From: Methanomassiliicoccaceae archaeon
GTDB lineage: Archaea > Thermoplasmatota > Thermoplasmata > Methanomassiliicoccales > UBA472
NCBI GenBank assembly: GCA_963827905.1
Contig: CAWHCB010000003.1
Location: forward strand, 3,005 to 67,004
Length of the DNA: 64,000 bases
Reading direction: 5' to 3'
In this document: positions 1 through 62,616 of the stretch, in pieces
How positions within the stretch are numbered: the stretch's first letter is position 1
Layout: every line of letters starts with the position of its first letter
The notes under the pieces: generated by a model
Told to the model about the DNA's origin: nothing
The model's input: only the letters and a program-made list of their open reading frames with translations
Database searches by the model: none
Translations under genes and position numbers: made by a program

Positions 1-556
1 CCTTTCCCTTCAGCTCGCGGACCTGCGCCATGATGATCCGCTGGTGGCGGACCGCCTCGACGACGTTGCCGGTGCCCGGCTCTCCCTTGGTCCGGATCAT
101 GGCCGCGCCCTCGTCGATGCGCCGCAGCGCCTCGCCCAGGTCCTGGCCCCGCAAACGAACGGTACGGTGAACTTGTTCTTGACCACGTGATAGAACGGGT
201 CGGCCGGCGTCAGCACCTCCGACTCGTCGATCATGTCCACTCCCAGGGATCTCCAGGACCTGGGCCTCGACGAAGTGGCCGATGCGGCACTTGGCCATGA
301 CCGGGATGGTGACCGCGTCCATGATCTCCTCGATCTTGATCGGGTCGGCCATGCGGGCCACGCCGCCCTGGGCTCGGATGTCCGCCGGAACCCGCTCCAG
401 CGCCATGACCGCCACCGCGCCGGCTTCCTCGGCGATGCTGGCCTGGTCGGCGTTGGTGACGTCCATGACCACTCCTCCCTGTTGCATCTTGGCAAAACCT
501 CTCTTTACCAGTTCAGTCCCAAACCGGAGCTTGGTCATGTCGAAATCTAATGGCAT
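1..556 (-). CDS. pdxS: Pyridoxal 5'-phosphate synthase lyase subunit (runs off window start; indels)
   Basis: Manual translation gives [34 protein letters not shown], ...[15 protein letters not shown]...PFVCGA and [30 protein letters not shown]. Confidence 0.95.
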
Positions 557-717
557 TCTTTCACCAGTTGGCTTAATTGCGAGCGCTTATATGAATATTG
601 ACATGAAATGAACATAAAACACAATAAGGTATTGAATGTACAATATGAAGTGCATCGCTCAGATCGACTTCGTGGAATTGACGAAATCTAATATACGCCG
701 GTGCGATATCCGCGCCA

Positions 718-35307: not shown

Positions 35308-35986
35308 AAAAGGTTCTATGACAGATTGGTTCGGCAAGCGCAGGGAATCGGTCATAGCCAAAGGCATAAGGGACCATGCGGAGAAGGTGTGCGACACCGT
35401 CACTGAGGTCAACCGCGCCTTCGGGGCGATGGCCAACAACGACCACAACAAGGCGCTGGAGGCCTTGAAGCGAATGGGCTACTCGGAGAAGGAGGCGGAC
35501 AACGTCGAGGAACGCATGTCCGAGGAGCTGGCCAAGGGAGACCTGGCCTCCAAGGAGCGCGAGGACCTCATGCACCTGGTCCGGCGCATGGAGGACGTGG
35601 CCGATTGGGGCAAGGAGGCCTCTCGGAACCTGCAGCTGGCCATCGAGGCGAACGTGCACGTTCCCCAGCATCTATGGAAACGCTTCTTCGAGCTCACCTC
35701 CGAATTGGAGAAGGCCGCCAAGGCCATGCGCCAGAGCGTGGAGGCCTTGGGCGTCAACGCCGAGATGGTGATGAGCCAGGAGAAGGCGGTGGGCGTTCTG
35801 GAGCACATCATCGACGACATGTACTTCAACATCAAGAAGGAGATCTTGCTGACCGAGCTGGACCCCAAGGGCGTCTATCTCCTCATGGACATGCTGCGCT
35901 GCCTGGAGGAATCCTCCGATTCCAGCAAGGACGCCGTGGACATGCTGCACATTTTGGTCATAAGCGACCAGTTCCATTCAAGATGA
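35300..35986 (+). CDS. DUF47 / PhoU-like phosphate transport regulator
   Basis: All-helical; SEKEADNV, REDLMHLVRRMEDVAD, LEHIIDD, LEESSD. Confidence 0.8.
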   Translation: MSEKGSMTDWFGKRRESVIAKGIRDHAEKVCDTVTEVNRAFGAMANNDHNKALEALKRMGYSEKEADNVEERMSEELAKGDLASKEREDLMHLVRRMEDVADWGKEASRNLQLAIEANVHVPQHLWKRFFELTSELEKAAKAMRQSVEALGVNAEMVMSQEKAVGVLEHIIDDMYFNIKKEILLTELDPKGVYLLMDMLRCLEESSDSSKDAVDMLHILVISDQFHSR

Positions 35987-35996
35987 GGCGTTTGCG

Positions 35997-37361
35997 ATGA
36001 GCGAGAGGTTGTTCGGCACCAACGGGGTACGGGGAGTGGTGAACGAGGACATGAGCGTCCAGCTCGCCTTGGACGTCGGCAAGGCCATCGGCACGTTCAT
36101 GGGCGGCAAGGTGGCCATCGCCACCGACACCCGCACCTCGGCCCACATGATCAAGAGCGCCGTCTCCGCGGGCCTGATGGCCTCCGGCGTGGAGGTGCTG
36201 GACCTGGGCATGCTGCCCACCCCGGCGCTGCAGTACTACGTGAAGGGCTCCGCCGTGAAGGGCGGGGTGATGATCACCGCCTCCCACAACCCTCCCGAGT
36301 TCAACGGCATCAAGTGCGTCGATTATGACGGCACGGAGATGCCCCGCCACAAGGAGGAGATGATCGAGGCGATCTACTTCAACCAGAGCTTCGCCCAGAA
36401 GAGCTGGCGCACGGTCGGTTCGATGAGGCCGATCACCGGTGTGGGACAGACCTACATCACGGTGGTGAGGCGACAGGTGGACCATGCCGCCATCGAGGAC
36501 GCCAAGCTGAAGGTGGTGCTGGACTGCGCCAACGGAGCCGGGTCGGCCACCTCCCCCCAGCTCCTCGAGTCCTTGGGAGTGAAGGCGATCACCCTGAACG
36601 CCAACCCGCAGGGGACGTTCCCTGGCCACGAGAGCGAGCCCACCCCGGAGAACCTCCGGGACCTGGTGGAGATGGTCAAGGTGACCGGTGCCGACCTGGG
36701 CATCGCCCACGACGGCGACGCGGACCGCTGCATCTTCGTGGACGACAAGGGCAACTACCTTTACGGAGACCGGTCCCTGGCCATCGTGGCCCGCTATGTG
36801 GTCGCCGAGAGGGGCGGCGGCACGGTGGTCACGCCGGTGAGCACCTCCTCCTGTCTGGAGGACGTGGTCAGGTCCGCTGGGGGGGAGGTCGTCTATACCA
36901 AGGTCGGCTCACCGGTGGTGGCTCGCAAGATGATCGAGGTCAAGGCCATCTTCGGCGGCGAGGAGAACGGAGGGCTCATCTTCCCGGAGCACCAGTATTG
37001 CCGGGACGCGGCCATGACCATGGCCAAGGTCCTGGAGATAATAGCCAAGGACGGCCCCCTCTCCCGATTGGCCGCTTCGATCCCCGGCTACGCCCTGGAC
37101 AAGCGCAAGATGCACACCCCGCCCGGCGTCAAGGACCAGGTGGTCGAGGAGCTCCTCATGCGCTTCGACGGCATGAGGGTGGACACCACCGACGGCATCA
37201 AGGTCTACTTCGACGAGGGATGGGCATTGATCAGGCCCTCAGGCACGGAGCCGATCTTCCGCATCTACTCCGAGGCCCGCTCCGACCAGGCGGCCAAGCG
37301 CATCGGGGACGAGTGCGAGAAGGCCCTCAGGGAAGCCGTCAAGGAATGCGAGGGCGACTGA
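35997..37361 (+). CDS. Phosphohexomutase (phosphoglucosamine/phosphomannomutase family), paralogue 1
   Basis: LFGTNGVRG, ITASHNPPEFNG, HDGDADR, GGEENGG, LIRPSGTEP. Confidence 0.93.
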   Translation: MSERLFGTNGVRGVVNEDMSVQLALDVGKAIGTFMGGKVAIATDTRTSAHMIKSAVSAGLMASGVEVLDLGMLPTPALQYYVKGSAVKGGVMITASHNPPEFNGIKCVDYDGTEMPRHKEEMIEAIYFNQSFAQKSWRTVGSMRPITGVGQTYITVVRRQVDHAAIEDAKLKVVLDCANGAGSATSPQLLESLGVKAITLNANPQGTFPGHESEPTPENLRDLVEMVKVTGADLGIAHDGDADRCIFVDDKGNYLYGDRSLAIVARYVVAERGGGTVVTPVSTSSCLEDVVRSAGGEVVYTKVGSPVVARKMIEVKAIFGGEENGGLIFPEHQYCRDAAMTMAKVLEIIAKDGPLSRLAASIPGYALDKRKMHTPPGVKDQVVEELLMRFDGMRVDTTDGIKVYFDEGWALIRPSGTEPIFRIYSEARSDQAAKRIGDECEKALREAVKECEGD

Positions 37362-40556: not shown

Positions 40557-41190
40557 TTATGCTAACTTCGACCTCATGATGCGCGCCACCTCTTCAGGGG
40601 GAAGGTCGGCCGCCCCCCCGATGACATTGACCCGGTACTGCAGTTTGGCCAGGAACTCCATGGCCTCCATGCGATGGAACGCCTCCCGCACGTCGCGGCC
40701 CACCGTGATGGCGCCATGCTTCTCCAGCAGGTAGGCGTTGCTCCAGGACATAGGCTCACCGATGGAGCGGGCCAGGTCCTCCGTGCCCGGGGTGGTGTAT
40801 GGGATCAAAGGTATATCCTTTCCCAAGTACAGCAGCGATTCCGGCGTCAGCGCCGGGCGCAACCGCTCGCTGGCCAAGGCAAGGACGGTGCAGAACTCCG
40901 GATGGGTAGTGCACCACCGCACCAACGTCCGGTCGTCCTCGATAGAAGGCCAGATGGAATGGCGTCTCAATGCTGGGCCTGCCTCCGGCCGCCACCTCCC
41001 CGGTGGCGATGTCAATCTCCACCAGCTTCTCCGCCTCCAGCATGCCCTTGCACACTCCGGAGGGGGTGATGAGCATACGACCTCCCTCCATCCTCAGGCT
41101 GATGTTGCCCGCCAGTCCGCTCACGAGCCCCTTCTCGTAGAGCAGCTTCCCATAATGGACCAGCTCCTTCCTCGCCTTCTCGTCCTTCAT
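40557..41190 (-). CDS. Class II aldolase (FucA/MtnB family), frameshifted
   Basis: GNISLR, ITPSG, RPSIETPFH, VVH-THP, IPYTTPGT, LLEKHG. Confidence 0.9.
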
Positions 41191-42199
41191 GACATCCGCG
41201 CCCCCTTGACCTTATGGACCTCGGATGGCTTGATGACGCCTATCTCGGTGATGATGCCGGTGACGTACTTGTGCGGCGTGACGTCGAACGACGGGTTCAA
41301 CGCCGCCGACCCCTTCGGCGCGATGAGACGCCCGTCCACCTCCGTCACCTCCGTGGGCGACCGGTTCTCGATGGGTATGTCCTTGCCGCTCTCCATCTTC
41401 AGGTCGAAGGTGGAGATGGGCGCCGCGGTGTAGAAAGGCACGCCCAGCTCATGGGCCAGGACGGCCTTCTCGAAGGTGCCGATCTTGTTGGCGAAGTCCC
41501 CGTTGGCGGCGATGCGGTCGGCCCCGACGATGACGATGTCGGTGCCCAGGCGCAGGAAATGGCCCGCCGCCCCGTCCGGGATGATGGCATGGGGTATGCC
41601 CTCCTCCACCATCTCGAAGGCGGTGAGCTTCATGCCCTGCCAGCGCGGTCTGGTCTCGGAGACGTAGACGAAGAGGGGCTTGCCCTTCCTCCACGCCGCG
41701 CGGATCGGCGCCAGCGCCGTGCCGTGGTCCAGGGTCGCCAAGGCCCCGGCGTTGCAATGGGTCATCACCCTGGCCCCGCTGGCGATCAATCCCTCCCCAT
41801 GCTCGCCGATCAGACGGCACTTCTCCACGATGGTGTCGGCGTAACGGTCGGCCGCCTCCTTGGCGTCCTCGCCCTTGGCCATCGATCTCCAGCATGAAGT
41901 CCACGGCGAAGAAGAGGTCGTGGGCGGTGGGCCTGGTGGACTTGAGCAGCCGTGGCCGCTTCCTGCAGGTCCATGCCCTGGTTCTTGGCCAAGAGCATTC
42001 CGTAGGCCGCCGCCGCGCCGATGGCGGGCGCGCCCCGAACGGTCATGTTGCGTATGGCCTCCGCCATGTCCTCGCAGTTGTAGATGTCCAAAAGGACCAC
42101 TTGGTGGGGGAGCAGCCGCTGGTCGATCATGCGCACCTTGTCGCCCTCGAGCCATAGCGCCCGGCGGTCCTGGACCTTGCCATCTAGCCTTATCTTCAT
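41187..42199 (-). CDS. mtnA: Methylthioribose-1-phosphate isomerase, frameshifted
   Basis: IDQRLLP, VRGAPAIG, THCNAGALAT, ETRPRWQG, GADRIAANGDFANKIGT, NPSFDVTP. Confidence 0.92.
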
Positions 42200-42330
42200 C
42201 TTCTCATGCGAGTGAGGGCGGAGGGATTAGAAAATTGTTCTTACTGCAATGGGTGGGCAGATTTCCGATATTTCGTCTCACAACAATATCTTTATTAACT
42301 GGCTTCATTAATCAGAATGTTGGCTAGGAG

Positions 42331-43078
42331 ATGAATAAGAAACCATCGGATTTTGACGTGTATTCGACCTCGACGGGGCTGCGCCAGATATCCAATCCAG
42401 TAAGGCAGAAGATATTGGCCGAGCTGCAACGCCGGGACCTTAGCCTGAGCGAGATCGCCGCCCTCACCGGGAAGGCGCAATCCACCCTGTCCGTGCACCT
42501 TGACAAGATGGTGGTGGAAGGGTCTGATCGGTTACCGGGACGACCCGCACGACAATCGACGCAAGATATTCTATCTCATCTCAAGGCCGGTCGGTTCCTC
42601 GGTGGTGCCACGGGAGGAGCTGAAGAAGGCGGTCAGCAACACCATCGCCCGCAGCATCGGTACCCCGTCCACCTTCTTGAAGGGCATGATCCGTTCCATC
42701 GTCATCGGGATGGAGGCCATCGGCTTCAACATGGACCCGGTGCTGAAGGACATCGGGCGGCAGATCGGGACCGAGGTGGCGAAGCGGTTCAAGTCCACCA
42801 ATGTGGAAGGCCTCATCCAGGAGGTCAAGGAGTTCTACAAGGAGCACGAGCTGGGCGAGGTCGTGGTCTATTCCGTGCACCCGGTCACGCTCATCATCAA
42901 GGACGAGTACGACTGCTCCAAGGCGCCCGACGTCGGACGCACCCTCTGTCTTCTGAACGAGGGCATGCTCGAGGCCATGTTCGAATCGAAGCTGAACATG
43001 CCGTTGCGCGTGGTGGAGAAGGAGACCTTCGGTTCCAATTTCAACATGTGCAAGTACGTGATCGAGCCCTCACTGTGA
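42331..43078 (+). CDS. ArsR-type HTH plus V4R-domain transcriptional regulator, one frameshift near 42520
   Basis: NPVRQKILAEL...GKAQSTLSVHL...DNRRKIF; C-terminal YDC...GRTLCLLNEGML...CKYVI. Confidence 0.8.
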
Positions 43079-43121
43079 GGTAGCGAAGCATTTCTGGTCC
43101 ATTTGTAAGATCAAAGGGTCT

Positions 43122-48310: not shown

Positions 48311-48567
48311 GCTCCCGAAAGCAGTAATTTTCTATTTATGTGATGGGCATCCACCACGGAACATTGGGTCGAAAATGATCTGGATTCGTAGGAAGATGAG
48401 AAGGCAAGAAACACACCGGAATGGGAAATGGCGTTTAGGATATCGGTTAACGATGATCAAATTCCCTTGCATGTCGATGGGTGCCAGGGCCATTGCTCGA
48501 GCCAGCTATCAGGACCGAAAAGGATTGAATTGAAATCAGAAAATAAATGTCTGGATGAGAAGATGAG

Positions 48568-48640
48568 TGGGCTCAGCCGGATTCGAACCGGCGACCTTCT
48601 CCGTGTCAGGGAAACGTCATAGCCACTAGACCATGAGCCC
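48568..48640 (-). tRNA. tRNA-Val(GAC), intron-less, CCA not encoded
   Basis: GGGCTCATGGTCTAGTGGCTATGACGTTTCCCTGACACGGAGAAGGTCGCCGGTTCGAATCCGGCTGAGCCCA folds as a cloverleaf; anticodon loop CT-GAC-AC; T-loop GGTTCGAATCC; upstream GAAAGACATATA. Confidence 0.96.
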
Positions 48641-50069: not shown

Positions 50070-51430
50070 TCACTTGGCCGCCCTGGCGGTCTTCTGGGCA
50101 CCGATGATGCCATCCAACAAATTGAGGAAATCCTCCTCGCGGCCGCGAGGCACCCTGCCGCCGCTGGCGATGTTGTGCCCTCCGCCCACGCCCCCGACCT
50201 TGGCCGCCGCCTCCTTCATCGCGGAGCCCAGGTCCACCCCGAGCTCGTCCACCATCTTGCGGTTGGCGCGGGAGGATATCTTGACCTCGCCGTTCTTATG
50301 GACCAGGCTGAGGGTGGGCTTCTCCCTGTCGCCGACCCATTGCATCATGACGCTGCACGCCTCCGAGGAGACGTCGGGGTTGGGGCAGATGAAATACTGG
50401 ATGTTGGCGCCTTGGATGAGACCTTTTCGGCTCACCTCGACCGAGGCATGCAGCAGGCTCTCCCCGAACTCCACCCGCATCCGCTCAGCGTCCTTGGCCG
50501 CCTCCGCCTCACCGAGGAGCATCGCCACGCCCAACGCCTGCCTCTCGGACTTGCCGCAGGCGTTCAATGCGTTGGCCAGGTCTTGGGAGAACTGCCTTTG
50601 CTCCGGGAAGTAGTAGCGGTTGGCGAGCACCTCCTCGAAGTTGCCGATGGTGCTGCCCTGCCTCAGCAGGCGCAGCATGATGAGGGAGTTGAGGCGCATG
50701 CGCTGCCCCTCGTCCAACGATTCGTATGGGAGGTTGTCCAGGACGTCCGCCTCGTCCAAAAGTCTCCTGACGCCCTCCCTGTCGCCGCTGACGCCCATGA
50801 TGAAGGGGTCGGTGGTCTTGTTCAGGGCGTCCTTGAGGTTACCGTCCACGATGAGCTGTCCGGGACGTTCCTGGACGAGCTTCCGCTTGGCCCCGTTCTG
50901 ATAGAGCCAGATGTTGATCCCGCTCAGGCCGCGCAGGTGCTGCTTATCGCCGATGATGCCGCCGAAGGCCACCCAGAGCAGGTCCCAGTTCTTCTCCGAG
51001 ACGTGCACGGCAAGGAGCATGGCAAGCGAGCTGGCGCAACCGGAGATGGCGCCATCGATGCCGTAACAGGTGGGGGTTGAGGTGCATCAACCTCTCGCCG
51101 CCCTTCTCCGGCCGGTGATGGTCCAGCACGATCACCGGGACGCTCAACGACTGAAGGACGTCCAGGTTGTTGGACCCCATGTCGGAGATGATGAGCAGGT
51201 CGACATCCTTGGCCGTCTCCCGCACCAGTTTCTCATCGAAGCCCTTGGCCATGGTGCACTGGAACTGTTTGCACTCCCGCAAGGAGCATGGCGCAGAGGA
51301 CCCCGGCGGACGCCAGTCCATCGGCATCGTTGTGGGAAATGACCCGGACCGTGACGGCCCGGCGGACGGCCTCCGCCGCCCTAGAAAAGTCAGTGAAGAG
51401 GTTTGGGGGAAGCTGGACGATATCGTCCAT
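50070..51430 (-). CDS. RecJ-like DHH/DHHA1 phosphoesterase, frameshifted
   Basis: SHNDADG, SDMGS, LDHH, KISSR, GGGHNIASG; directly downstream of rps15. Confidence 0.9.
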
Positions 51431-51436
51431 CCGCCC

Positions 51437-51892
51437 TCACTCGATGAGCAGCTCGGCGGTCTTGAGCGAATACTGCCACTCCATGGGCAGGCCGCCCTCG
51501 CGCTTGTAGTACTTCACCAAGCGGCGGATCTTCGCCTCGATGAGCTGCAGGCCGCGGCGGTTCGCCACGTCCTTCTTGTTGGCCACCACATGTACGTTGA
51601 GGTCGATGGCCCGGCGCATCAGGGCGACCAGGTCCTCGGGGAGCTTGGGGGAGAGGTTGTTCTCGTCCAGGATCTCCAGGATGGTCTTGCCGGTGGCCAG
51701 CTTGACGTCGGGGACGGCGTATTGGTCGCGCAGCTTCAGGCCGATCTTGGCCGTGGGCATGCCTTCCTTTCCGAACTTCACGACAAGCTGAACGATCTCC
51801 TCTTGGGGCACGGGGACCCACTCTGGGTTCTCCGTGACCATGGGACGGTGGGAACCTGACTTCCCCCTTCTTCTGGCGTGCATCTTTGCCAT
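51437..51892 (-). CDS. rps15: 30S ribosomal protein uS15 (S15/S13e)
   Basis: MAKMHARRRGKSGS, IGLKLRDQY, LPEDL, LQLIEAKIRRLVKYYK. Confidence 0.97.
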   Translation of the reverse strand: MAKMHARRRGKSGSHRPMVTENPEWVPVPQEEIVQLVVKFGKEGMPTAKIGLKLRDQYAVPDVKLATGKTILEILDENNLSPKLPEDLVALMRRAIDLNVHVVANKKDVANRRGLQLIEAKIRRLVKYYKREGGLPMEWQYSLKTAELLIE

Positions 51893-53016: not shown

Positions 53017-53071
53017 ACGGTGGCATGGATGAGGGTTAAGGTTAAAAGCGTTTCTCGCCGCTATCCGGTCC

Positions 53072-53530
53072 GTGGCCGGTGAGGGGGACCAGGGCAAGAA
53101 GATCGACGAGCTCACCCAGAAGGTGGAGCAACTAGAGCAGGCCATGCGCGACGTGGCCCGCCCCTACTCCGAACTGGTGGAGCAGTTGGCCCGGTTCCAG
53201 GAGACGGTGCAGAAATACTTCCGCCTCATGGACCTGTACCAGCGCTATGGTTCCATCTCCATCGAGACCATCCTCCCCGAGGTCAAGGACCCCATCTCCA
53301 AGGACATCGTCAAGGTACTGCTGGACAAACCTGGGCTGAACATATCGGAGATAACCGAGGAGCTCAGGGCCCGGCGGGGCAGCTCCTCTCGGCGCATCGT
53401 GCGCGACCGGTTGGGGGAGCTGGTGGAGCAGAAGGTGCTGGTGGAGAAGGCTGGCCAAAAGGAGAAGACATACGATATCTCCGAGCCCGTGATCAAGAAA
53501 TGGTCACAAGTGCTCGGGTTGAGCAAATAG
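53072..53530 (+). CDS. Coiled-coil plus winged-helix putative regulator
   Basis: Heptad N-terminus; KDPISKDIVKVL...LNISEITEELRARRGSSSRRIVRDRLGEL. Confidence 0.7.
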   Translation: MAGEGDQGKKIDELTQKVEQLEQAMRDVARPYSELVEQLARFQETVQKYFRLMDLYQRYGSISIETILPEVKDPISKDIVKVLLDKPGLNISEITEELRARRGSSSRRIVRDRLGELVEQKVLVEKAGQKEKTYDISEPVIKKWSQVLGLSK

Positions 53531-53606
53531 GGTGACCATGCTTGACCTAATACGAAGGACGAAGGGAGACCGGGAACGAACCGTATGAGACGGACGAGGT
53601 GAAGAG

Positions 53607-53954
53607 ATGACAGAAAAGGAAGGGTACAAGAGCGAAATGCCGGACGCGCAGGAGCTAAGGGAGATATTCGAGGTGCTGTCCGAGCATGTGCCGCGGTTGC
53701 TCGAGGCGGTGACCAAGGTACTGTACAACGCCCAGGAAGGGGAGAAGTTCGGTCAATCGGTGGCCGGGTTCTACAAATCCCTCAAGGCGGCGGGGATGAG
53801 CGGACAGGAGGCCTTCGAGCTCACCAAGCAGTACATGGACACCATCAGCCTGGGTGGGCTTTTGAAGAACATGATCGGCGGCTATGGCGATGACGACGAC
53901 ATCGGGAGGGCCATCAAGAAGCGGGTGGCCAAGGAGATCGAAGAGGAGAAATGA
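53607..53954 (+). CDS. Conserved hypothetical helical protein
   Basis: GAGGTGA RBS; GEKFGQSVAGFYKSLKAAGMSGQEAFELTKQY. Confidence 0.7.
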   Translation: MTEKEGYKSEMPDAQELREIFEVLSEHVPRLLEAVTKVLYNAQEGEKFGQSVAGFYKSLKAAGMSGQEAFELTKQYMDTISLGGLLKNMIGGYGDDDDIGRAIKKRVAKEIEEEK

Positions 53955-54223
53955 TGGACCCGGAGGATAAGGAAGCGGTCCTGGTGGTGACAGCGGCCGC
54001 CCCCAAGTTGATGATCACGCTCTTCATCTCCTATCTGCGCCTCAAGCGGGCAGCGGTGCGGGCGGAGAAGGACCTGCGGCGCTCCCTGCAGGCCAACGGT
54101 GTCCCGAAAAAGGAAGCGAAGGAGCTCGCCGCGGCCTACACCGAATGGACCTCCTTGCGTTATTGGCTGAGGAGGGCGGCGTTCCCGGCCGCCCTGGAAG
54201 GGATCCGGTCCGCCGGCAAGTGA
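53951..54223 (+). CDS. Hypothetical protein (amphipathic/membrane-associated)
   Basis: ATGA overlap with previous gene; hydrophobic N-terminus; RRSLQANGVPKKEAKELAAAY. Confidence 0.65.
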   Translation: MMDPEDKEAVLVVTAAAPKLMITLFISYLRLKRAAVRAEKDLRRSLQANGVPKKEAKELAAAYTEWTSLRYWLRRAAFPAALEGIRSAGK

Positions 54224-54230
54224 TCTCAAT

Positions 54231-55149
54231 TCACTGCCGGATCAGATACTCGGCCACGCCGAAGCCGACCTCTTCGTCCATCTTGAACCGGGTGAGGGTC
54301 TCCCACATCACGGCGTGGTGCTTCTTGTCCTCGCCCTCGAAGTGCATCATGGCCTTGCGCTTGGTGACGCCCTTCACGCCGTACACGTTGCCATCCTTGT
54401 CATAGAACGCCATGTACAGCTCGGTCGGGCTGCCGTCCGCCTGGAACTCCTTGGCCACGTCCACCTTGACGATGGGGATCATCTCGCCGTCCAAGTACAG
54501 GAAGCCAGCGTCGACATCGCCCTTGTCCATCTCCAGCTTGGTGATGTTGAAGGCGAACTTCTCGTTGAACTGGCAGGTGACCCAGAGCCACAGGCGGGGG
54601 GCGGTCCATTCCCTGACGCCCCAGGAGTGGTCCCTCTCGCCCAAGGCGCGGACCACGAACTCCCGATCCTCGACCTTGACCGTGCCTATGAAATGTCCGA
54701 CCTGCTCGATGTGCTCGGCCGCCACCTGCTGGGCGATCTTCTCCTTCTCCGGCGTCACGCAGTTGCGGTAGTCGAACTGAGGGGTGATGGCATCGAAGTC
54801 CAGGGCGAACGAGACCTTGACCGGCTTGACCTCGCCCTTGTCCATTTGCATTGAGCTCTCCCTCATAGGAGAGGTTCCACTTCTTCTCCGCCTCGACCGC
54901 GGTGAACTTGAGGCCCTTGGCGCTCAGCTCGTTGTCTTCCATCTCGACGTTCTCTTTGAGGCCCACGATGGAGCCGTCCGGCATGAGGAAGAAGCAGAAG
55001 AGCGCCTTCTCCTTCTTGTTCGGCTTCATACCGATGCGCATGAAGCCGCAAAGGTCGTTGCCGCGATCATAGAAATTGAAGTAAAAACTCTCGTTCCAGT
55101 CCTTTTGCTCTCCGACCTCATGAAGCATATCGTAATCCAAATCGATCAA
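54231..55149 (-). CDS. AttH/tocopherol-cyclase-like double beta-barrel protein of unknown function, one frameshift near 54855
   Basis: DWNESFYFNFYD, GFMRIG, HIEQVGHFIGTV, GERDHSWGVREW, GFGVAEYL; TTG start overlaps the upstream TGA. Confidence 0.65.
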
Positions 55150-57762
55150 CCTTCCAACACGTAAATCGTGCCTTCGTTGCCGTCAAGGGTTATCCTCTGC
55201 CCCGTCTTGAAGATTTTCGTTGCACCCTTGACCGCGGTGACCGCCGGGAGGCCGTATTCGCGCGAAACCACCGCCCCGTGCGACAGCACCCCGCCGGTCT
55301 CGGTGATCAGTCCCCCGATCTTGCTGAACACCGCCGTCCAGCCCGGGTCGGTGTTGGTCGTGACCAGGATCTCGTGGTCCCGCACCTCGCCCAGCTGCTC
55401 GATGGAATCGACCACGCGAACGATGCCAGTGCACGTTCCCGGGCTGGCCGAGGTGCCGACGATCCTCAGGCCGTCCCCTTGCCATATGACCGTGTCGTCG
55501 AACTCGGTGTTCCCTCGCAGGAACTTCGGGGGCAGTCGGTCCTTGTAGCGCATGAACTCCTTCCGCCTCTGCTCCACCGTCCTCTTCAGCTCCTCTGACG
55601 GCTGCCCTGGCATTTGGAATATCTCCTCCTTGCTCAGGAAGAAGATGTCATCGACGCCTTCCAGCAACCCTCTCTCCTTGAACCTGCGGCCATACTCCAT
55701 GAAGAGGCGGCGCCAGCGATAGAGGATGTGGTCCAGGTAGAAGCGCTGGTTCTCCCGGAACATGAGATAGGTCTGGGCATACCCGAGGACGGTCTTGAAC
55801 AGCTTGCGGCGCAGGTAGCCGTAACGCATCTTGCCTATCGCGGCCAGTATCTCCCGCTCCGCCTCCATGCGCTCCTTGACCTTGTTCCGCTCCATCTCTT
55901 CCAGGTCAATTTGCGGCGACCGGACCAGCGCCCTCAATATGTCGACCACCAGGGCGGGGTCGTCCGCCCAGCGGGGGAAGTAGATCTCGCGGGTGTGGGA
56001 CCTCTGGCCATAGGCATCGAGGAACTCCAGGAGCTCGATGCGATAATCTGAGTACATGGGCTGGGTCCAGAGCTCCTCAAGGAACTGCTCGGACGATAGC
56101 TCCTGCAGGCGTCTCGCCACGGCGGCATCCTCCCTGGCCTTGTCGGCCAGCTTGGCCAAGGCCATGTTGGTCTCGATGGTCTTGTTGCCCTTCAGCCCGG
56201 AGATGACCTTGGAGTAGAGCACGCCCGACCTATCGTCCAACCAGTCGGTCAACCAGCGCTTCACCATCAGGTTCGTTCCGATGGAGTGGGTCACCATGCC
56301 ATAGCGGATCAGGCGGAAGTGCTTCAGGTAGGCCTGCTCCATGGCCAGGAACTCCTGGTGCAACCGTTCGTCCTCCACCTTGGTCAGGTCCAGGGCGTCG
56401 AAGGGACCTACCGCCTCCATGTAATCCCTCCGTCCACCGCTGGTAGGCCTTGTCGGTCCGGAATATGGTGCCGTCCCGGTCCAGCACCGCGATGCGGACC
56501 TCCGCCCACAGGCGTTTGCCCACCTTGGTCTTGACGTTGGCGATGCGTTCCTGGTCCTTCACCGGGAAGTAGTTGAGCAGCTCCTTGGTGCGTGAGAATC
56601 GGGGGTTGTAGGTGAAGACCTCCTCCAACACCTCGGTGTTGAAGTAGATGTGGCCCTTGTGCACCCGCAGCAGCACCTTGTCGGTGAGGTCCTTGTAACC
56701 CATGATCTCGCTGCCCTCGTGGTTCACGTACTTGGTGAGATACTCTCCAAGCAACGAGTAGAACAGCGGCGAGGTGACATCGGCCCAGTATTCGTCCCCG
56801 TAGGCCCTGGTCCACAGGGTCCGGTCCTTGACCAGGGTGGTGATGGGACGGGACTGCAGGATGTATACCGAACTTCCGTCCATGGCCCACTCGATGTCCT
56901 GGGGCGACCCGAAGTGGTCCTCCAGTCTCAGACCGGTGCGGGCCAGTTCCTCCGCTTGCCCTGGCTCCAGGGTGGGCTTGGTCTGCAGGTCCTCCGGGAG
57001 GGCGGTCGCCTCGGCCGAGCTCAGATGGAAGGCCTTTTCCTTCCGGTTGATCTGGCGATGCTCCAGTTTGCAGCTCCGGCCGTCGCATGTGTAGCGGTCC
57101 GGACTGACCATGCCGGAGGCCACGGCCTCTCCCAGGCCGAACGCCGCCTCGATGACGACCTTGTCATCGCCGGTCACGGGGTCCTTGGTGAACATGATCC
57201 CTGAGCTTACCGCATCCACCATCCTCTGCACGATGACCGCCATGCCCGTGCGCAGGTGAGGCACCTCGTTGTTGTGACGATAGGTCATGGCCCTCTCGTT
57301 CCAGTAGGAGGCCCAGCATCGTTTCACATGCTCCGCCACCGCCTCCTTCCCGATGCCAAGATAAGTGTCCTGCTGCCCGGCGAACGACGCGTCGCCCAGG
57401 TCCTCCGCGATGGCGGACGATCGCACCGCCCAAAGACGATCGGAGGCGAGCCTGTCCCGCAGCCCTGCCAACAGCTCATCGCGCAGAGGCCTCGCCATCA
57501 TGGCCCTCTTGATCTCTTGGGAGGCCTTCTGCACTGCCAGGGCGTCATCGAAATCAGTGCCCTCAAGGACCTTGGCGATCTCCTCGGTCAGCCCATCGGC
57601 CCGGAGGAAGGAATCATACTCCATTGCCGGCACCACCAACGCCCAAGGCACCGGAAAGCCCGCCGATAGAAGGTTGGCCAGGTTCGCCGCCTTCGGCCCG
57701 ACCAGCCCGATGTCCCCCTCCCCGACCTCCTCCAAGGACAGGACGGTCTTCGCAGCTGTCAT
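55146..57762 (-). CDS. PEP-utilising-family enzyme with ATP-grasp, central domain and C-terminal phosphohistidine swivel (rifampin phosphotransferase/PigC architecture), one frameshift near 56425
   Basis: GPKAANL, AVRSSAIAEDLGDASFAGQQDTYL, QDIEWA, LQSRPITT; C-terminal TDPGWT, ETGGVLSHGAVVSREYGLPAV; no PEP/pyruvate TIM barrel. Confidence 0.88.
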
Positions 57763-57862
57763 GCCATTGATTTGGACCAGGCCCCCAGCCGGCTTAGACC
57801 TTCCATCAACAAAATGCTTTGCCCCTCCAATTATTTCTAAAGGAAGGGCCATTGAGGCCCTG

Positions 57863-58636
57863 ATGCTCGATATCCTGAACGAAATCGCCGACCGGGTGGC
57901 CGAGAAGGTCAGACCGAGATGGCGCGAGGCCTGCATGGGCGAGGAGCTGGAGATGGGGGCGGACGGCACCCCCACCTTGTTGATCGACCGTCTGGCCGAG
58001 GAGATCATCATAGACCACGTCAAGCGCTCCGGACTATCCTGGGACATACTGAGCGAGGAGGCGGGCCGAGTAGGGGATGGCGGGGACAGGACCTTGGTCA
58101 TCGACCCCATCGACGGCACCTACAACGCGATCATGGGAATACCGTTCTACAGCGTGTCATTGGCCCTGGGCAGGGAGAGCATGTGCGACGTCGACACCGC
58201 GGTGGTGCTGAACCTGGTGACCGGCGACCGGTACACCGCCATCAAGGGCAAGGGGGCCTGGTTGAACGGATGTCGTATCCAGACCAGGAAGCTGGACCTC
58301 AAGCAGGCGGTGTTCCTGGTCTACATGGGGCATTTCGCCACCGACAAGGACTTCCGCATGGCCCGGATGGGGCGGAGATGCCGCTCCCTCGGGTGCAGCT
58401 CCCTGGAACTGGCCTTGGTGGCCCAGGGCAGCGCCGACGGCTATTACCTTCACACGGACGTCTACGAGAAGGCCATCCGCGTGGTGGACATCGCCGCCGC
58501 GGCCTTGATCCTGCGCGAGGCCGGCGGGGACCTCGTCGATCTTAAAGGAGGCAGGTTGGACATGCCCTTCGACCTGAGCACGAGAAGTAACTTCTTAGCC
58601 TATGGCGACGAATCTATGCGCGAGGTGCTGCGATGA
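57863..58636 (+). CDS. Inositol monophosphatase / FBPase / NADP phosphatase family protein
   Basis: MGADGTPT, LSEEAG, IDPIDGTYN, RSLG, RVVDIAAA. Confidence 0.9.
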   Translation: MLDILNEIADRVAEKVRPRWREACMGEELEMGADGTPTLLIDRLAEEIIIDHVKRSGLSWDILSEEAGRVGDGGDRTLVIDPIDGTYNAIMGIPFYSVSLALGRESMCDVDTAVVLNLVTGDRYTAIKGKGAWLNGCRIQTRKLDLKQAVFLVYMGHFATDKDFRMARMGRRCRSLGCSSLELALVAQGSADGYYLHTDVYEKAIRVVDIAAAALILREAGGDLVDLKGGRLDMPFDLSTRSNFLAYGDESMREVLR

Positions 58637-59816: not shown

Positions 59817-61043
59817 TCAGAAGACGCGCGAGTCCGGACCGATGTTCCCCCGGGCCAGGGTGCCCATGCCGATGGTGCATCTCTCCCAGATGATGGTGCC
59901 CGGTTCGATCATGCTGTTGATGCCGGTCTTGACGTCATCGCCCATGATCACGCCCAGCTTCCTCAGTCCGGTGTCGATGAGCTCGTCGCGGAACGTGACC
60001 TTGATGGTGCGGTTGTCGAAACGGAGGTTGGCCACCTTGGTGCCCGCGCCGAAGTTGCACCGCTCCCCGATCACGCTGTCACCCACGTAGTTGTGGTGGG
60101 GGATGTGGGTGCCGGCCATGACGATGCTGTTCTTCACCTCGACCGAGGCCCCGATCTTGACCTTCTCCGCCAGGCTGGTCGCCGGTCGGATATAGCAGTT
60201 CGGGCCGACCTCGCAGCCCTTGGATATGTACACCGGTCCTTGGACATAGGCGCCGCTGCGCACCACCGCCCCCTCCTCCACCACCACGTTCCCTTTCAGG
60301 ACCGCCCCCTCCTCCACCTCGCCCCGGATGTCGCGCTGGACCTCCGACATCAGGATCTCGTTGGCCTTGAGCAGGTCCCAGGGCCGCCCCACATCCATCC
60401 AGTAACCTTCCAGACGTTGGACCACCAGGTCGTTGGCGGCGGCGAACAGGTTGAGCGTGTCGGTTATCTCGAACTCCCCGCGGGGGGACCTCACGGTCCT
60501 GCGGATGTAAGGGAATATCTCAGGGGTGAGGATGAACATGCCCGCGTTGATCAGGTCGCCCGGGGGGTCCTTGGGCTTCTCGACGATGCGTGCCATGCGG
60601 CCCTCCCTCTCGTCGATGACGCCGAAGCGGGAAGGGTCCTGCACGCGGACGGCGCATATCATGGCCTTGCGCTCCCTGCGATAGCGGTCCACCGCCGCCT
60701 TGATGTCCTGTCTCGATAGGAGCACGTCCCCGTTGAGGCATACGAACTCCTCATCGATGTGGCCCTCGGCGATGCCGATGGCGTTCGCCGTCCCCAAGCG
60801 CTCCTTCTGCTCCAGGAAGTTGATTTTCAGGCCCAGGCTCGAGCCGTCGCCGTAATGCTCCTTGATGCGGTTGGCCTTCCAACCCACCAGGATGGTGACG
60901 TCCTCCACCCCGGCCGAGCGCAGCGATTCCATGAGGTGGGTCAGGTACGGTTTGCCTGCCAACGTCAGCAATGGCTTCGGTATGTTGGAGGTGAGCGGTC
61001 TGAGCCTGGTCCCCTCTCCTGCGGCAAGGATGAACGCCTTCAT
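59817..61043 (-). CDS. glmU: Bifunctional sugar-1-P nucleotidylyltransferase/acetyltransferase (archaeal GlmU)
   Basis: ILAAGEGTRLRPLT, LGTANAI, VEKP, SPRGEFEITD, hexapeptide region, HHNYVGDS, GAGTKVANLR. Confidence 0.93.
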   Translation of the reverse strand: MKAFILAAGEGTRLRPLTSNIPKPLLTLAGKPYLTHLMESLRSAGVEDVTILVGWKANRIKEHYGDGSSLGLKINFLEQKERLGTANAIGIAEGHIDEEFVCLNGDVLLSRQDIKAAVDRYRRERKAMICAVRVQDPSRFGVIDEREGRMARIVEKPKDPPGDLINAGMFILTPEIFPYIRRTVRSPRGEFEITDTLNLFAAANDLVVQRLEGYWMDVGRPWDLLKANEILMSEVQRDIRGEVEEGAVLKGNVVVEEGAVVRSGAYVQGPVYISKGCEVGPNCYIRPATSLAEKVKIGASVEVKNSIVMAGTHIPHHNYVGDSVIGERCNFGAGTKVANLRFDNRTIKVTFRDELIDTGLRKLGVIMGDDVKTGINSMIEPGTIIWERCTIGMGTLARGNIGPDSRVF

Positions 61044-62347
61044 TTCAGGCACCTCTTCACTATGCCCCTCCCCAGGTTCATGAGGCGGTCCACCTCCTCC
61101 TTGTTCCTGGCCTCGGCATTGACGCGGACCTTGGGCTCGGTGCCGGAGAGCCGGACCAGGAACCAACCGTCCTGGAACTCCGCGCGCCAGCCGTCCACGG
61201 TGATGAGGCGGTTGCACTTGAGGTTGGCCATCTCCCCCCCGATCTTGCCCCGGACTATGTCCCTCTCTTGGGATTGGAACATGAAGGACTCCCGGGCGGA
61301 GGGATAGGAAGGTAAGGCGTCGACCAGCTCGGAGAGACGGTTCTCCGCCACACATTTGGCCAGAAGGGCCGCGGCATACACGCCGTCCGGACAGTAGGTC
61401 TGCCGGGGGAAGATGAAGGTGCCCGACGGCTCGCCTCCGAAGGGGAAGCCGGTCTTCTTGAGCGCCTCCGCCACGTAGACATCGCCCACCTTGGTGCGGA
61501 CCACGTTGCCATCGACCATGTCGTCCAACACCATCGAGGCGTCGATCGGCGCCACGATGCCGTCCGCCTCCACCAACGAGGCGAACAAGGCCAGCAACCG
61601 GTCCCCGTCGATGAAGCGGCCGTTCTCGTCCATGGCCACCATGCGGTCGCCGTCGCCATCGTGGGCGATGCCCAGGTCCGCGCTCTTGGCCAACACGGCA
61701 TGGCGCAGGTCGCCCAGCTGCTCCTCGGTCGGTTCAGGCAGTCGACCGGGGAAGTATCCGTCGGGCTGGGCGTTCAGGCTGAGCACGCTGCAGCCCATCT
61801 CGCGCAGGAGGATGGGGGTGATGGTGGTGGTGGCCCCGCAGCCGCAGTCCACCACCACGTTGACATGGCATTGGCCCAGGGAGCGCATCACCTCTTGGAT
61901 GTGGTCATGGATGGCGCCGGCGTAATGGCTCTGCTGCCCCACTTTCCTCCATCCAGGCATGGTCTTGGAGGGTTCGGTGATGAGGCTCTCCACCTCGTCC
62001 ATCTGTCGGCTGTCGAACGCGCTTCCGTCCGGGTTCCACATCTTCACGCCGTTGTACTCTGCTGGGTTGTGGGAGGCGGTGACCATGAGACCGCAGCTAT
62101 GGCCGAAGGCGGCCCGGGCCAGGGTGGGGGTGGACACCATGCCGGTCAGGTGCACATCGGCGCCAGAGGCCATGGCCCCTGCTGCCAACGCGCTCTCCAT
62201 CATGTCGCTGCTGGTGCGGCAGTCCTTGCCGATGATCACGTCCTTGTAAAGCTGCCCCACCGCGATCCCGATCCGGAGGGCGAGGCCCGCTGTGATCTCG
62301 CGGCCCACCACCCCGCGGATCCCTGACGATCCGAACAACGATGTCAT
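61040..62347 (-). CDS. glmM: Phosphoglucosamine mutase, paralogue 2 (operon with glmU)
   Basis: LFGSSGIRG, VTASHNPAEYNG, HDGDGDR, TKVGD, GGEPSG, VRLSGTEP; stop overlaps the glmU start. Confidence 0.9.
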   Translation of the reverse strand: MTSLFGSSGIRGVVGREITAGLALRIGIAVGQLYKDVIIGKDCRTSSDMMESALAAGAMASGADVHLTGMVSTPTLARAAFGHSCGLMVTASHNPAEYNGVKMWNPDGSAFDSRQMDEVESLITEPSKTMPGWRKVGQQSHYAGAIHDHIQEVMRSLGQCHVNVVVDCGCGATTTITPILLREMGCSVLSLNAQPDGYFPGRLPEPTEEQLGDLRHAVLAKSADLGIAHDGDGDRMVAMDENGRFIDGDRLLALFASLVEADGIVAPIDASMVLDDMVDGNVVRTKVGDVYVAEALKKTGFPFGGEPSGTFIFPRQTYCPDGVYAAALLAKCVAENRLSELVDALPSYPSARESFMFQSQERDIVRGKIGGEMANLKCNRLITVDGWRAEFQDGWFLVRLSGTEPKVRVNAEARNKEEVDRLMNLGRGIVKRCLK

Positions 62348-62415
62348 TTCCAGCGCGGTCATTGACATCAGCCCATATATTCTTAGCGTGCCGGCATGGA
62401 GAAAAAATGTCTTAA

Positions 62416-62616
62416 CTGGAGCATTATCCAGCATAATTTCTATGGGGGTAAAAAATAAATTAAAAATCAATCGTTAATCCGACAAAATCTGGCTATCTTG
62501 ACCGAAAAAATGGTTTATTTTATAAGTAAAATAATGTCTGGTCAGTGAGCATTATCAGATAAATATTATATATTAGTAAAGTTCATTACAATCTGGACAT
62601 AAGGCCAGTTAACTGG
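62416..62616. promoter_or_regulatory. AT-rich divergent promoter region with repeated operator-like motifs
   Basis: CTGG-N8-CCAG at 62416-62431 and 62593-62608; direct repeat GAGCATTATC at 62419 and 62547; palindrome CCAGTTAACTGG at 62605-62616; TATA-like TATTATATA near 62564. Confidence 0.55.

Follow-up and report, generated by a model that had tools for sequence, protein, structure and literature searches.

An archaeal gene pair of rifampin phosphotransferase-type dikinase and 25-phosphosteroid lyase relative, a candidate module for ATP-dependent dehydration

A 64,000-nucleotide stretch of contig CAWHCB010000003.1 from a Methanomassiliicoccaceae archaeon (hereafter, the window) carries on its minus strand two adjoining genes, here called gene 1 and gene 2, each of which is broken across two reading frames in the assembly. 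The locus raises the question of whether the genes are intact in the organism and, if so, what reaction a dikinase resembling rifampin phosphotransferase (RPH) could share with a protein of the DUF7065 and DUF7064 families. On balance, we favour the reading that they form an intact bicistronic module, its two frameshifts being consensus errors, and that the module would dehydrate an alcohol at the expense of ATP, with the dikinase phosphorylating a hydroxyl group and the lyase eliminating the phosphate to leave a C=C bond.

The open reading frame (ORF) list and Pfam searches located the pair on the minus strand where the initial annotation had placed it, with the domains and motifs described there; that annotation had read silently through a single-base insertion in each gene. 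Four long minus-strand frames are involved: 56230-58119 and 55146-56420 (629 and 424 residues) make up gene 1, and 54400-55149 and 54231-54866 (249 and 211 residues) make up gene 2. With one extra base discounted in each, gene 1 would encode 871 residues and gene 2, counted from TTG 55149, would encode 305.

55146..57762, minus strand: gene 1, RPH-like dikinase (ATG 57762, TGA 55146-55148; from ORFs, Pfam and the intact 871-residue orthologue in locus L004)
54231..55149, minus strand: gene 2, DUF7065+DUF7064 protein (Pfam PF23213 and PF23212; intact orthologue P0001)
55146..55149, minus strand: TTGA, shared by the gene 1 stop and a candidate gene 2 start (reads GGTTGA)

The overlap of TGA and TTG described at the outset is present as GGTTGA, but gene 2 has two further possible starts besides TTG 55149, namely TTG 55140 and ATG 55128. 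TTG 55140 is the position of Met in most gene 2 orthologues, and near-identical proteins in the database are called as 305 or 298 residues. The TTGA at 55146..55149 would, as a candidate start, provide translational coupling.

Gene 1 has three domains.

56827..57705, minus strand: ATP-grasp nucleotide-binding domain, PPDK_N (PF01326, E 2.6e-87; residues 20-312 from ATG 57762)
55380..56826, minus strand: middle domain, putatively substrate-binding, beginning near WTRAYGDEYWADVTSPL (56764-56814)
55170..55379, minus strand: phospho-His swivel domain, the PEP-utilizers mobile domain (PF00391, E 5.3e-24)

PPDK_N and PF00391 flanking a middle domain is the order of RPH, as had been proposed, and the intact 871-residue orthologue has the Listeria RPH structures 5hv1, 5fbs and 5hv2 as its best PDB match (E 1.1e-95); this phmmer match spans residues 7-311 and 502-869, with residues 312-501 unaligned. 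The swivel His (codon 55278-55280, within TETGGVLSHGAVVSREYGLPAV) aligned to the His of the same motif (TETGGvLSHGAVVSREYGlPAV) in RPH 5hv1. As H828 it is invariant in an alignment of 30 archaeal sequences (A2), in which the middle domain also has many invariant columns. Two NCBIfam models, PRK06241.2-2 and RedH, align end to end with the gene 1 protein (RedH over residues 6-870 in one stretch), with scores below cut-off, and no curated family cut-off was reached by any NCBIfam model:

PRK06241.1-3: 476 bits against a cut-off of 945
PRK06241.2-2: 450 bits against 883
RPH equivalog NF041857: 425.9 bits against 999
RPH NF000283: 322 bits against 1700
RedH: 389.5 bits against 1350
PigC: 365.2 bits against 1300
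Phosphoenolpyruvate (PEP) synthase NF005057: 368.7 bits against 598
PEP synthase TIGR01418: 363.4 bits against 739.75
PPDK TIGR01828: 81 bits against 843

Because no curated model reached its cut-off despite the RPH domain order, gene 1 is, on the evidence of its sequence, an RPH-type dikinase of its own subfamily.

Gene 2 is likewise identified by homology. Pfam placed DUF7065 (PF23213) on the third of the four frames and DUF7065 together with DUF7064 (PF23212, E 4.5e-18) on the fourth; in these two window pieces the gathering scores were passed (66.2 versus 24.7 for PF23212; 33.3 and 37.4 versus 27 for PF23213), and both domains are present in all 120 gene 2 homologues listed. When the gene 2 family profile was compared with the whole PDB, the sole matches were chains of 25-phosphosteroid lyase (25-PSL), as two distinct sequences, the wild type (E 3.3e-11) and an Asn (D->N) variant (E 1.4e-10). 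We conclude from these sequence matches that gene 2 is a homologue of 25-PSL, its only characterised sequence relative, and the profile match implies that 25-PSL would carry the DUF7065/DUF7064 Pfam domains. Three motif blocks are common to the two (SFYFNF/YYFN, LGERDHSWGVR/LGSRDRSWGVR and EVGYGIAEYL/EVGYG..E); on the minus strand of the window, WNESFYFNF lies at 55072-55098, HIEQ at 54696-54713 and the second block as follows.

54606..54641, minus strand: GERDHSWGVREW motif, aligning with LGSRDRSWGVR of 25-PSL (Asp codon 54630-54632)

The residues E171-R172-D173-H174-S175-W176-G177 are nearly invariant in an archaeal alignment (A1). PDB entry 9g4c, 25-PSL with phosphate and product bound, has Asn at the motif Asp, and by analogy with this variant sequence D173 is probably a catalytic residue.

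The AlphaFold (AF2) model of gene 2, built with 34 homologues, is all-beta (pLDDT 94.4, pTM 0.91). Its top five Foldseek matches were 25-PSL chains (9g2i, 9fzn and 9g4c; E 4e-15 to 1e-14, query TM-score (TMq) 0.68-0.71, probability 1.00 for the top match); fungal pericyclases, AttH NE1406 and kievitone hydratase came next. VIA-align gave Z-scores of 26.7 for AttH NE1406, 25.6 for the pericyclases, 25.5 for 25-PSL and 24.3 for kievitone hydratase, and structural-alignment identity to gene 2 was 20-21% for 25-PSL versus 10-15% for the other AttH-like proteins. The likeness to AttH, CrtC and tocopherol cyclase suggested in the initial annotation therefore stands for the AttH-like fold but not for family membership, as gene 2 had no match at E<=0.01 to the corresponding Pfam families (PF07143, PF17186 and PF14249). 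An Atlas look-up placed Tocopherol_cycl on neighbouring DUF7064/65 clusters only (16% of members in one cluster).

Linkage of the two genes was examined in one genome per species by a pattern scan, which returned 78 loci with gene 2, all of them archaeal; in 67 of these, the first four classes below, gene 1 lies immediately upstream.

46 of 78 loci: whole gene 1, with its stop between -10 and +29 nt of the gene 2 match
5 of 78 loci: a single open frame (fusion) of 1183-1207 residues
10 of 78 loci: gene 1 reaching the contig end
6 of 78 loci: gene 1 complete save for a frameshift or N run
6 of 78 loci: gene 1 remnant only (L046, L048, L051, L065, L079 and L101)
5 of 78 loci: gene 1 not found (L057, L062, L072, L076 and L086)

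The loci belong to Methanomassiliicoccales, other Thermoplasmata, Methanofastidiosa, Methanomethylicia, Methanocella, Conexivisphaerales and others. Fused proteins also occur in the protein database (n=14, 1119-1211 residues), and the fusion in L074 contains all four Pfam domains. DUF7064 was found in 22 of the 301 sampled genomes of the phylum, and the gene 1 middle domain in 27; both genes were present in 21 and adjacent on one strand in 21/21, while one genome had gene 2 only, six had only a distant gene 1 relative and 273 had neither. Seven of these 21 paired genomes have a deeply divergent version (24-30% identity) in reversed order, lyase then kinase, which Pfam confirmed on four loci. 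A 225-residue HTH_10 (Bat-type) regulator gene, divergent from the reversed pair, was found in three of the four loci examined and may be a dedicated sensor of the substrate of the pair.

L103, 6687-7361: HTH_10 regulator, divergent from the lyase-kinase pair
L105, 2279-2953: HTH_10 regulator, divergent from the lyase-kinase pair
L106, 2180-2854: HTH_10 regulator, divergent from the lyase-kinase pair

Five further genomes have the pair adjacent, two of them single-contig, and G011 and G019 are complete genomes of the same family that carry it. A close gene 1 orthologue was present in 22 of 41 relatives; DUF7064 had no match in 14 control genomes. All-against-all ORF clustering of the 78 loci yielded order-level synteny and shadow frames, with no conserved third partner, and Pfam searches of the regions beside the pair in 11 loci of other lineages revealed no recurring family. 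A complex prediction made from alignments of gene 2 and of gene 1 residues 312-871 scored 0.00 and carries no weight either way. Together, adjacency in both orders and fusion bear out the linkage across genomes on which the initial annotation had staked its case; at the level of sequence, gene 1 and gene 2 are a linked functional unit, and the fusions argue for hand-over within one complex.

In the 11 loci where gene 1 is reduced or not found, the remnants are C- or N-terminal, and several Methanomassiliicoccales among them retain the inositol-phosphatase and NAD-kinase neighbours. These observations suggest repeated loss of the kinase with the lyase kept.

The breaks in the two genes were compared with other assemblies.

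56423..56429, minus strand: 1-nt insertion in gene 1 (extra T; tblastn frame switch between 56431 and 56426)
54849..54852, minus strand: 1-nt insertion in gene 2 (extra A; tblastn frame switch at 54851/54853)

In an alignment with four congeners, only the window showed the extra T near 56424 and the extra A near 54852. Congeners G002 and G004 have both genes whole, and the few-contig congeners G001 and G003 have a single-base shift of their own elsewhere in gene 1. From four pieces of G002, a many-contig congener, 15 ORFs of at least 200 residues were placed on the window by tblastn; after four (200, 212, 243 and 228 residues) had been dropped as overlapping shadow frames of lower identity, 11 were compared. 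Six of the 11 genes have a frame switch in the window, with eight switches in total, and every uncompensated indel in the DNA alignments of window and congeners is a 1-nt insertion in the window.

Contigs of public runs X1, X5 and X18 that span either site all omit one letter. In run X1, the omitting depth at the gene 2 site (54849-54852) was 23.8/23.8; at the gene 1 site (56423-56427), three omitting contigs sum to 30, equal to the depth at 56423 and 56425, and the depth at 56426 was 50.3. The pieces of this run near the sites differ from the window at 1 base in 505 and 1 in 269. The omitting depths at the gene 2 and gene 1 sites were 6.8/6.8 and 6.46/6.46 in run X5, and 3.47/3.47 and 3.2/3.2 in run X18, an RNA library. 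Run X6 covered 17 of 30 bins, neither insertion site among them. The X18 metatranscriptome gave two contigs, 95-99% alike, over 54792-55088 and 56288-56542, which is insufficient to show transcription.

The window requires a same-direction shift in each gene, which might suggest true pseudogenes in this organism, or programmed +1 frameshifts; we regard this reading as very improbable. Frame switches of the same kind occur in six of the 11 genes compared; the extra bases appear in no contig of the three other runs, not even in those that match the window at 99% or more close by; and the sites lie at differing, non-conserved positions, G001 and G003 being shifted elsewhere in gene 1. Pseudogenes and programmed frameshifting were both rejected on the frame-switch comparison and the contigs of the other runs. 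Because six of 11 genes are broken alike and all spanning contigs of other runs lack the extra base, the splits in both genes are, as judged from sequence comparison, consensus errors of the assembly, and the genes are intact in the organism. In the compared parts, the assembly has a spurious inserted base roughly every 1-2 kb of coding sequence, and therefore its apparent pseudogenes are not to be trusted. The remaining four genes with single inserted bases relative to G002 lie at 40560-43080 and 50070-51440 of the window: a 215-residue gene (switch near 40908), a 345-residue gene (near 41885 and 41952), a 249-residue gene (near 42522) and a 454-residue DHH/DHHA1 gene (near 51077 and 51282).

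The closest known system is that of 25-PSL from Sterolibacterium denitrificans (PDB 9fzn, 9g2i and 9g4c), which acts after 25-hydroxysteroid kinase (25-HSK) in anaerobic degradation of the cholesterol side chain. In that pathway, 25-HSK phosphorylates the tertiary 25-hydroxysteroid and phosphate elimination gives a delta-24 alkene; the tertiary C25 phosphoester roughly equals ATP in group-transfer potential, and the ADP-forming 25-HSK is fully reversible (PMC8449060). In a 2024 paper, the steroid phosphate lyase is still termed putative (PMC11061730). We compared 25-PSL through PDB titles and sequences: besides the profile match, the best chain gave Foldseek E 4e-15 at TMq 0.70 and VIA Z 25.5, with 272 residues aligned at 20% identity, and the logic would be the same, a kinase making the phosphoester and a lyase eliminating the phosphate. 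The archaeal protein is ~55 residues shorter (305 versus 362), and at about 20% identity its substrate probably differs from 25-phosphosteroids. Compared for the adjacent gene only, its partner is an 871-residue RPH-type dikinase that is overlapping, adjacent or fused, and the host of the gene pair is an anaerobic archaeon without known sterol metabolism.

We propose the following mechanism. By analogy with RPH, gene 1 would load phosphate from ATP onto its swivelling His, which would pass it to a hydroxyl of a bulky hydrophobic substrate in the middle domain, and we infer from the same analogy that AMP and inorganic phosphate (Pi) would be released. Gene 2 would then eliminate phosphate from the phosphoester to form a C=C double bond (alkene), which by analogy with 25-PSL is its most likely chemistry and narrows the earlier suggestion that it 'hydrates, cyclises or cleaves'. 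The net reaction would be ATP-driven dehydration of an alcohol that is not directly dehydratable. A dikinase of this kind would be useful because a tertiary phosphoester has ATP-like transfer potential and an ADP-forming kinase is reversible; by spending two anhydride bonds, it would make phosphorylation of a hindered alcohol irreversible and pull it forward to the lyase. The substrate would most plausibly be a tertiary or hindered aliphatic alcohol; we would guess at a hydroxylated isoprenoid, because both relatives, RPH and 25-PSL, take hydrophobic substrates.

Several points weigh against this proposal. A pairing of dikinase and lyase is without experimental precedent, and 25-PSL is served by a 40-kDa kinase that forms ADP and whose gene lies elsewhere in the genome, apart from that of the lyase (PMC8449060). 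The role of the Asp is drawn from the sequence of a PDB variant. Phenols and a pyrrole aldehyde are also among the substrates of known RPH-type enzymes, and from the products of these the lyase could not eliminate phosphate in the same way. Gene 2 may work without this kinase, because 11 of 78 loci (six with a remnant, five with none) retain it whole without an intact gene 1. No neighbouring gene points to a substrate, the flanks being unrelated outside the order. Structure alone ties 25-PSL with AttH, fungal pericyclases and kievitone hydratase (Z 24-27), and the AttH-like fold of the model is one that would permit hydration or pericyclic chemistry.

This last point leads to an alternative that we consider unlikely but the most serious of those weighed here: the kinase would be coupled to an AttH-like hydratase, cyclase or pericyclase acting on a lipophile, and phosphorylation would serve activation before condensation (as in PigC) or trapping of product. 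The VIA-align tie and the Tocopherol_cycl annotation on some DUF7064/65 clusters are in keeping with it. Yet 25-PSL alone is detectable by sequence and has the RD(R/H)SWG motif in common with gene 2, its structural identity is about 20% compared with 10-15% for the rest, and the CrtC/AttH and tocopherol cyclase families of Pfam gave no match at the threshold above. Much harder to credit is the notion, conveyed by public names such as 'phosphoenolpyruvate synthase' and 'PEP-utilizing enzyme', that gene 1 is a plain PEP synthase or PPDK and gene 2 an unrelated neighbour; we give it next to no weight. The NCBIfam PEP synthase models do match both terminal domains, but they score 369 versus 598 and 363 versus 740, and among Pfam matches of the gene 1 pieces at E<=0.01, as in the fused L074 protein, there was no PEP/pyruvate barrel family, in line with the initial annotation. 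A separate 775-residue open frame on contig C14 of the same genome resembles true PpsA, and fusions and adjacency in both gene orders bind gene 1 to gene 2.

The elimination chemistry could also hold with a different role: in place of endogenous lipid or cofactor metabolism, the pair would be induced to detoxify or break down an exogenous compound, whether an alcohol of the terpenoid or steroid kind or a molecule resembling an antibiotic; we think this rather improbable. The pair is patchily spread (22 of 301 genomes of the phylum), a quick tree of the family mixes phyla with many unresolved forks, the pair moves as a self-contained cassette between unrelated flanks, the HTH_10 regulator stands divergent from three of the four reversed-order loci examined, and RPH is itself a resistance enzyme. 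Against this, the pair in Methanomassiliicoccaceae lies in conserved synteny among housekeeping genes, without a regulator and with host-like G+C, and to our knowledge archaea of this type are not known to degrade terpenoid- or steroid-like compounds.

Other relatives place the dehydration proposal among known enzymes. Archaeal RNA polymerase is not known to be a rifamycin target. Listeria monocytogenes RPH (5hv1, 5fbs) shares with gene 1 the order of ATP-grasp, middle substrate domain and His swivel, and the phospho-carrier His is aligned, but gene 1 misses the equivalog cut-off (426 versus 999), leaves residues 312-501 unaligned and is coupled to a lyase gene. RPH converts rifampin (RIF) and ATP to phospho-RIF, AMP and Pi (PMC4844700). 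The prodiginine ligases PigC, RedH and HapC, and phenylphosphate synthase, HpeHI and MarK, belong to the same superfamily and share its domain logic; their substrates are aldehydes or phenols, and none has a known DUF7064/65 partner. AttH NE1406 (2ich), kievitone hydratase (7a0t) and the pericyclases CghA, Fsa2 and Phm7 share the whole-length two-barrel fold (AttH-like folds aligned with gene 2 at Z 24-27, rmsd 2.9-3.7 A, over 268-283 residues), but at 10-15% identity they are missed by the sequence profile, and they perform hydration or cycloaddition without a phosphate leaving group.

A further likeness is to Rv3168-Rv3169 of Mycobacterium tuberculosis, as gene 2 matches the NCBIfam Rv3169 family model (58.6 bits, E 5.3e-16). 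We take Rv3168 to be a kinase of the aminoglycoside-phosphotransferase fold; if it is a kinase, the two may be another kinase-lyase pair, a third form of the same idea. The score is below the 150-bit cut-off, so that gene 2 lies outside the Rv3169 subfamily, and the kinase fold differs. We know of no function for either Rv3168 or Rv3169. Their operon is repressed by the TetR regulator Rv3167c (PMC5340868).

The core idea of the initial annotation, a coupled two-enzyme system acting on a lipophile, is retained, but 'undescribed pathway' was too strong, as the phosphorylate-then-eliminate logic is already known from anaerobic cholesterol degradation (PMC8449060). The system is not without precedent because gene 2 is a detectable sequence homologue of 25-PSL. 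What is new here is the kinase type and the archaeal setting. The searched literature, which did not include the primary 25-PSL paper, yielded no mention of DUF7064/DUF7065 and no archaeal pairing of an RPH-type kinase and a DUF7064/65 lyase with natural fusions. The large DUF7064/DUF7065 family has no function assigned to it in archaea and bacteria, and its first characterised member, 25-PSL, appeared in the PDB only in 2026. Archaea of several phyla retain a relative of 25-PSL with a quite different kinase type, overlapping, adjacent in either order or fused. For two uncharacterised families, the pair gives a testable prediction (phosphorylation with release of AMP and Pi, then phosphate elimination) that would extend a strategy of 'ATP-dependent dehydration' beyond denitrifying steroid degraders, and it points to a hydrophobic alcohol in methanogen-rich anoxic habitats. 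A more ambitious possibility, which we hold doubtful, is that this is the first archaeal ATP-driven alcohol dehydratase, converting tertiary hydroxyls of isoprenoids to double bonds without oxygen, sometimes as a single polypeptide of about 1190 residues. Its candidate substrates would be hydroxylated ether lipids of archaea, such as hydroxyarchaeol or hydroxylated glycerol dialkyl glycerol tetraether (OH-GDGT)-type chains, or environmental terpenoid or steroid alcohols, and if true, anaerobic archaea would gain a reaction for remodelling lipids or activating isoprenoids to which no enzyme has been assigned.

The pair belongs to an archaeon, as the initial annotation had held, because a fibrillarin gene lies nearby and near-identical proteins and contigs are labelled Methanomassiliicoccaceae or Methanomassiliicoccales. 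Other neighbours identified by Pfam are Kae1/TsaD, a DHH-family protein, NUDIX, GlmU-like, PGM/PMM and Ppx, and the G+C of the pair (0.60-0.63) is similar to its surroundings. A plus-strand ORF divergent from the pair matched Pfam Inositol_P, and this inositol-monophosphatase-family gene is followed by NAD kinase.

57763..57862, strand not assigned: A+T-rich spacer of 100 bp between the pair and the divergent inositol-monophosphatase-family gene (ATG 57863, plus strand); presumed promoter region of the pair, from its sequence

Three small conserved plus-strand genes (about 165, 121 and 109 residues) at 53033-54220 run towards the end of gene 2; they had no Pfam assignment, save a weak FlaC_arch match on the first, and are kept at 47-91% in two other genera. 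A tRNA-Val (GAC) gene at 48567-48640 on the minus strand lies in a low-G+C (0.49) stretch with many indels between congeners, and a segment of about 75-140 bases surrounding it has matches at several further sites in related genomes. In locus L069, from an archaeon labelled NM3, a heliorhodopsin gene (3-656, minus strand) stands beside a LonB-type protease gene upstream of the pair. The window has two PGM/PMM-family paralogues, at 35853-37358 (plus strand) and 61040-62470 (minus strand), to which a 502-residue ORF of G002 is 97% and 36% identical, respectively.

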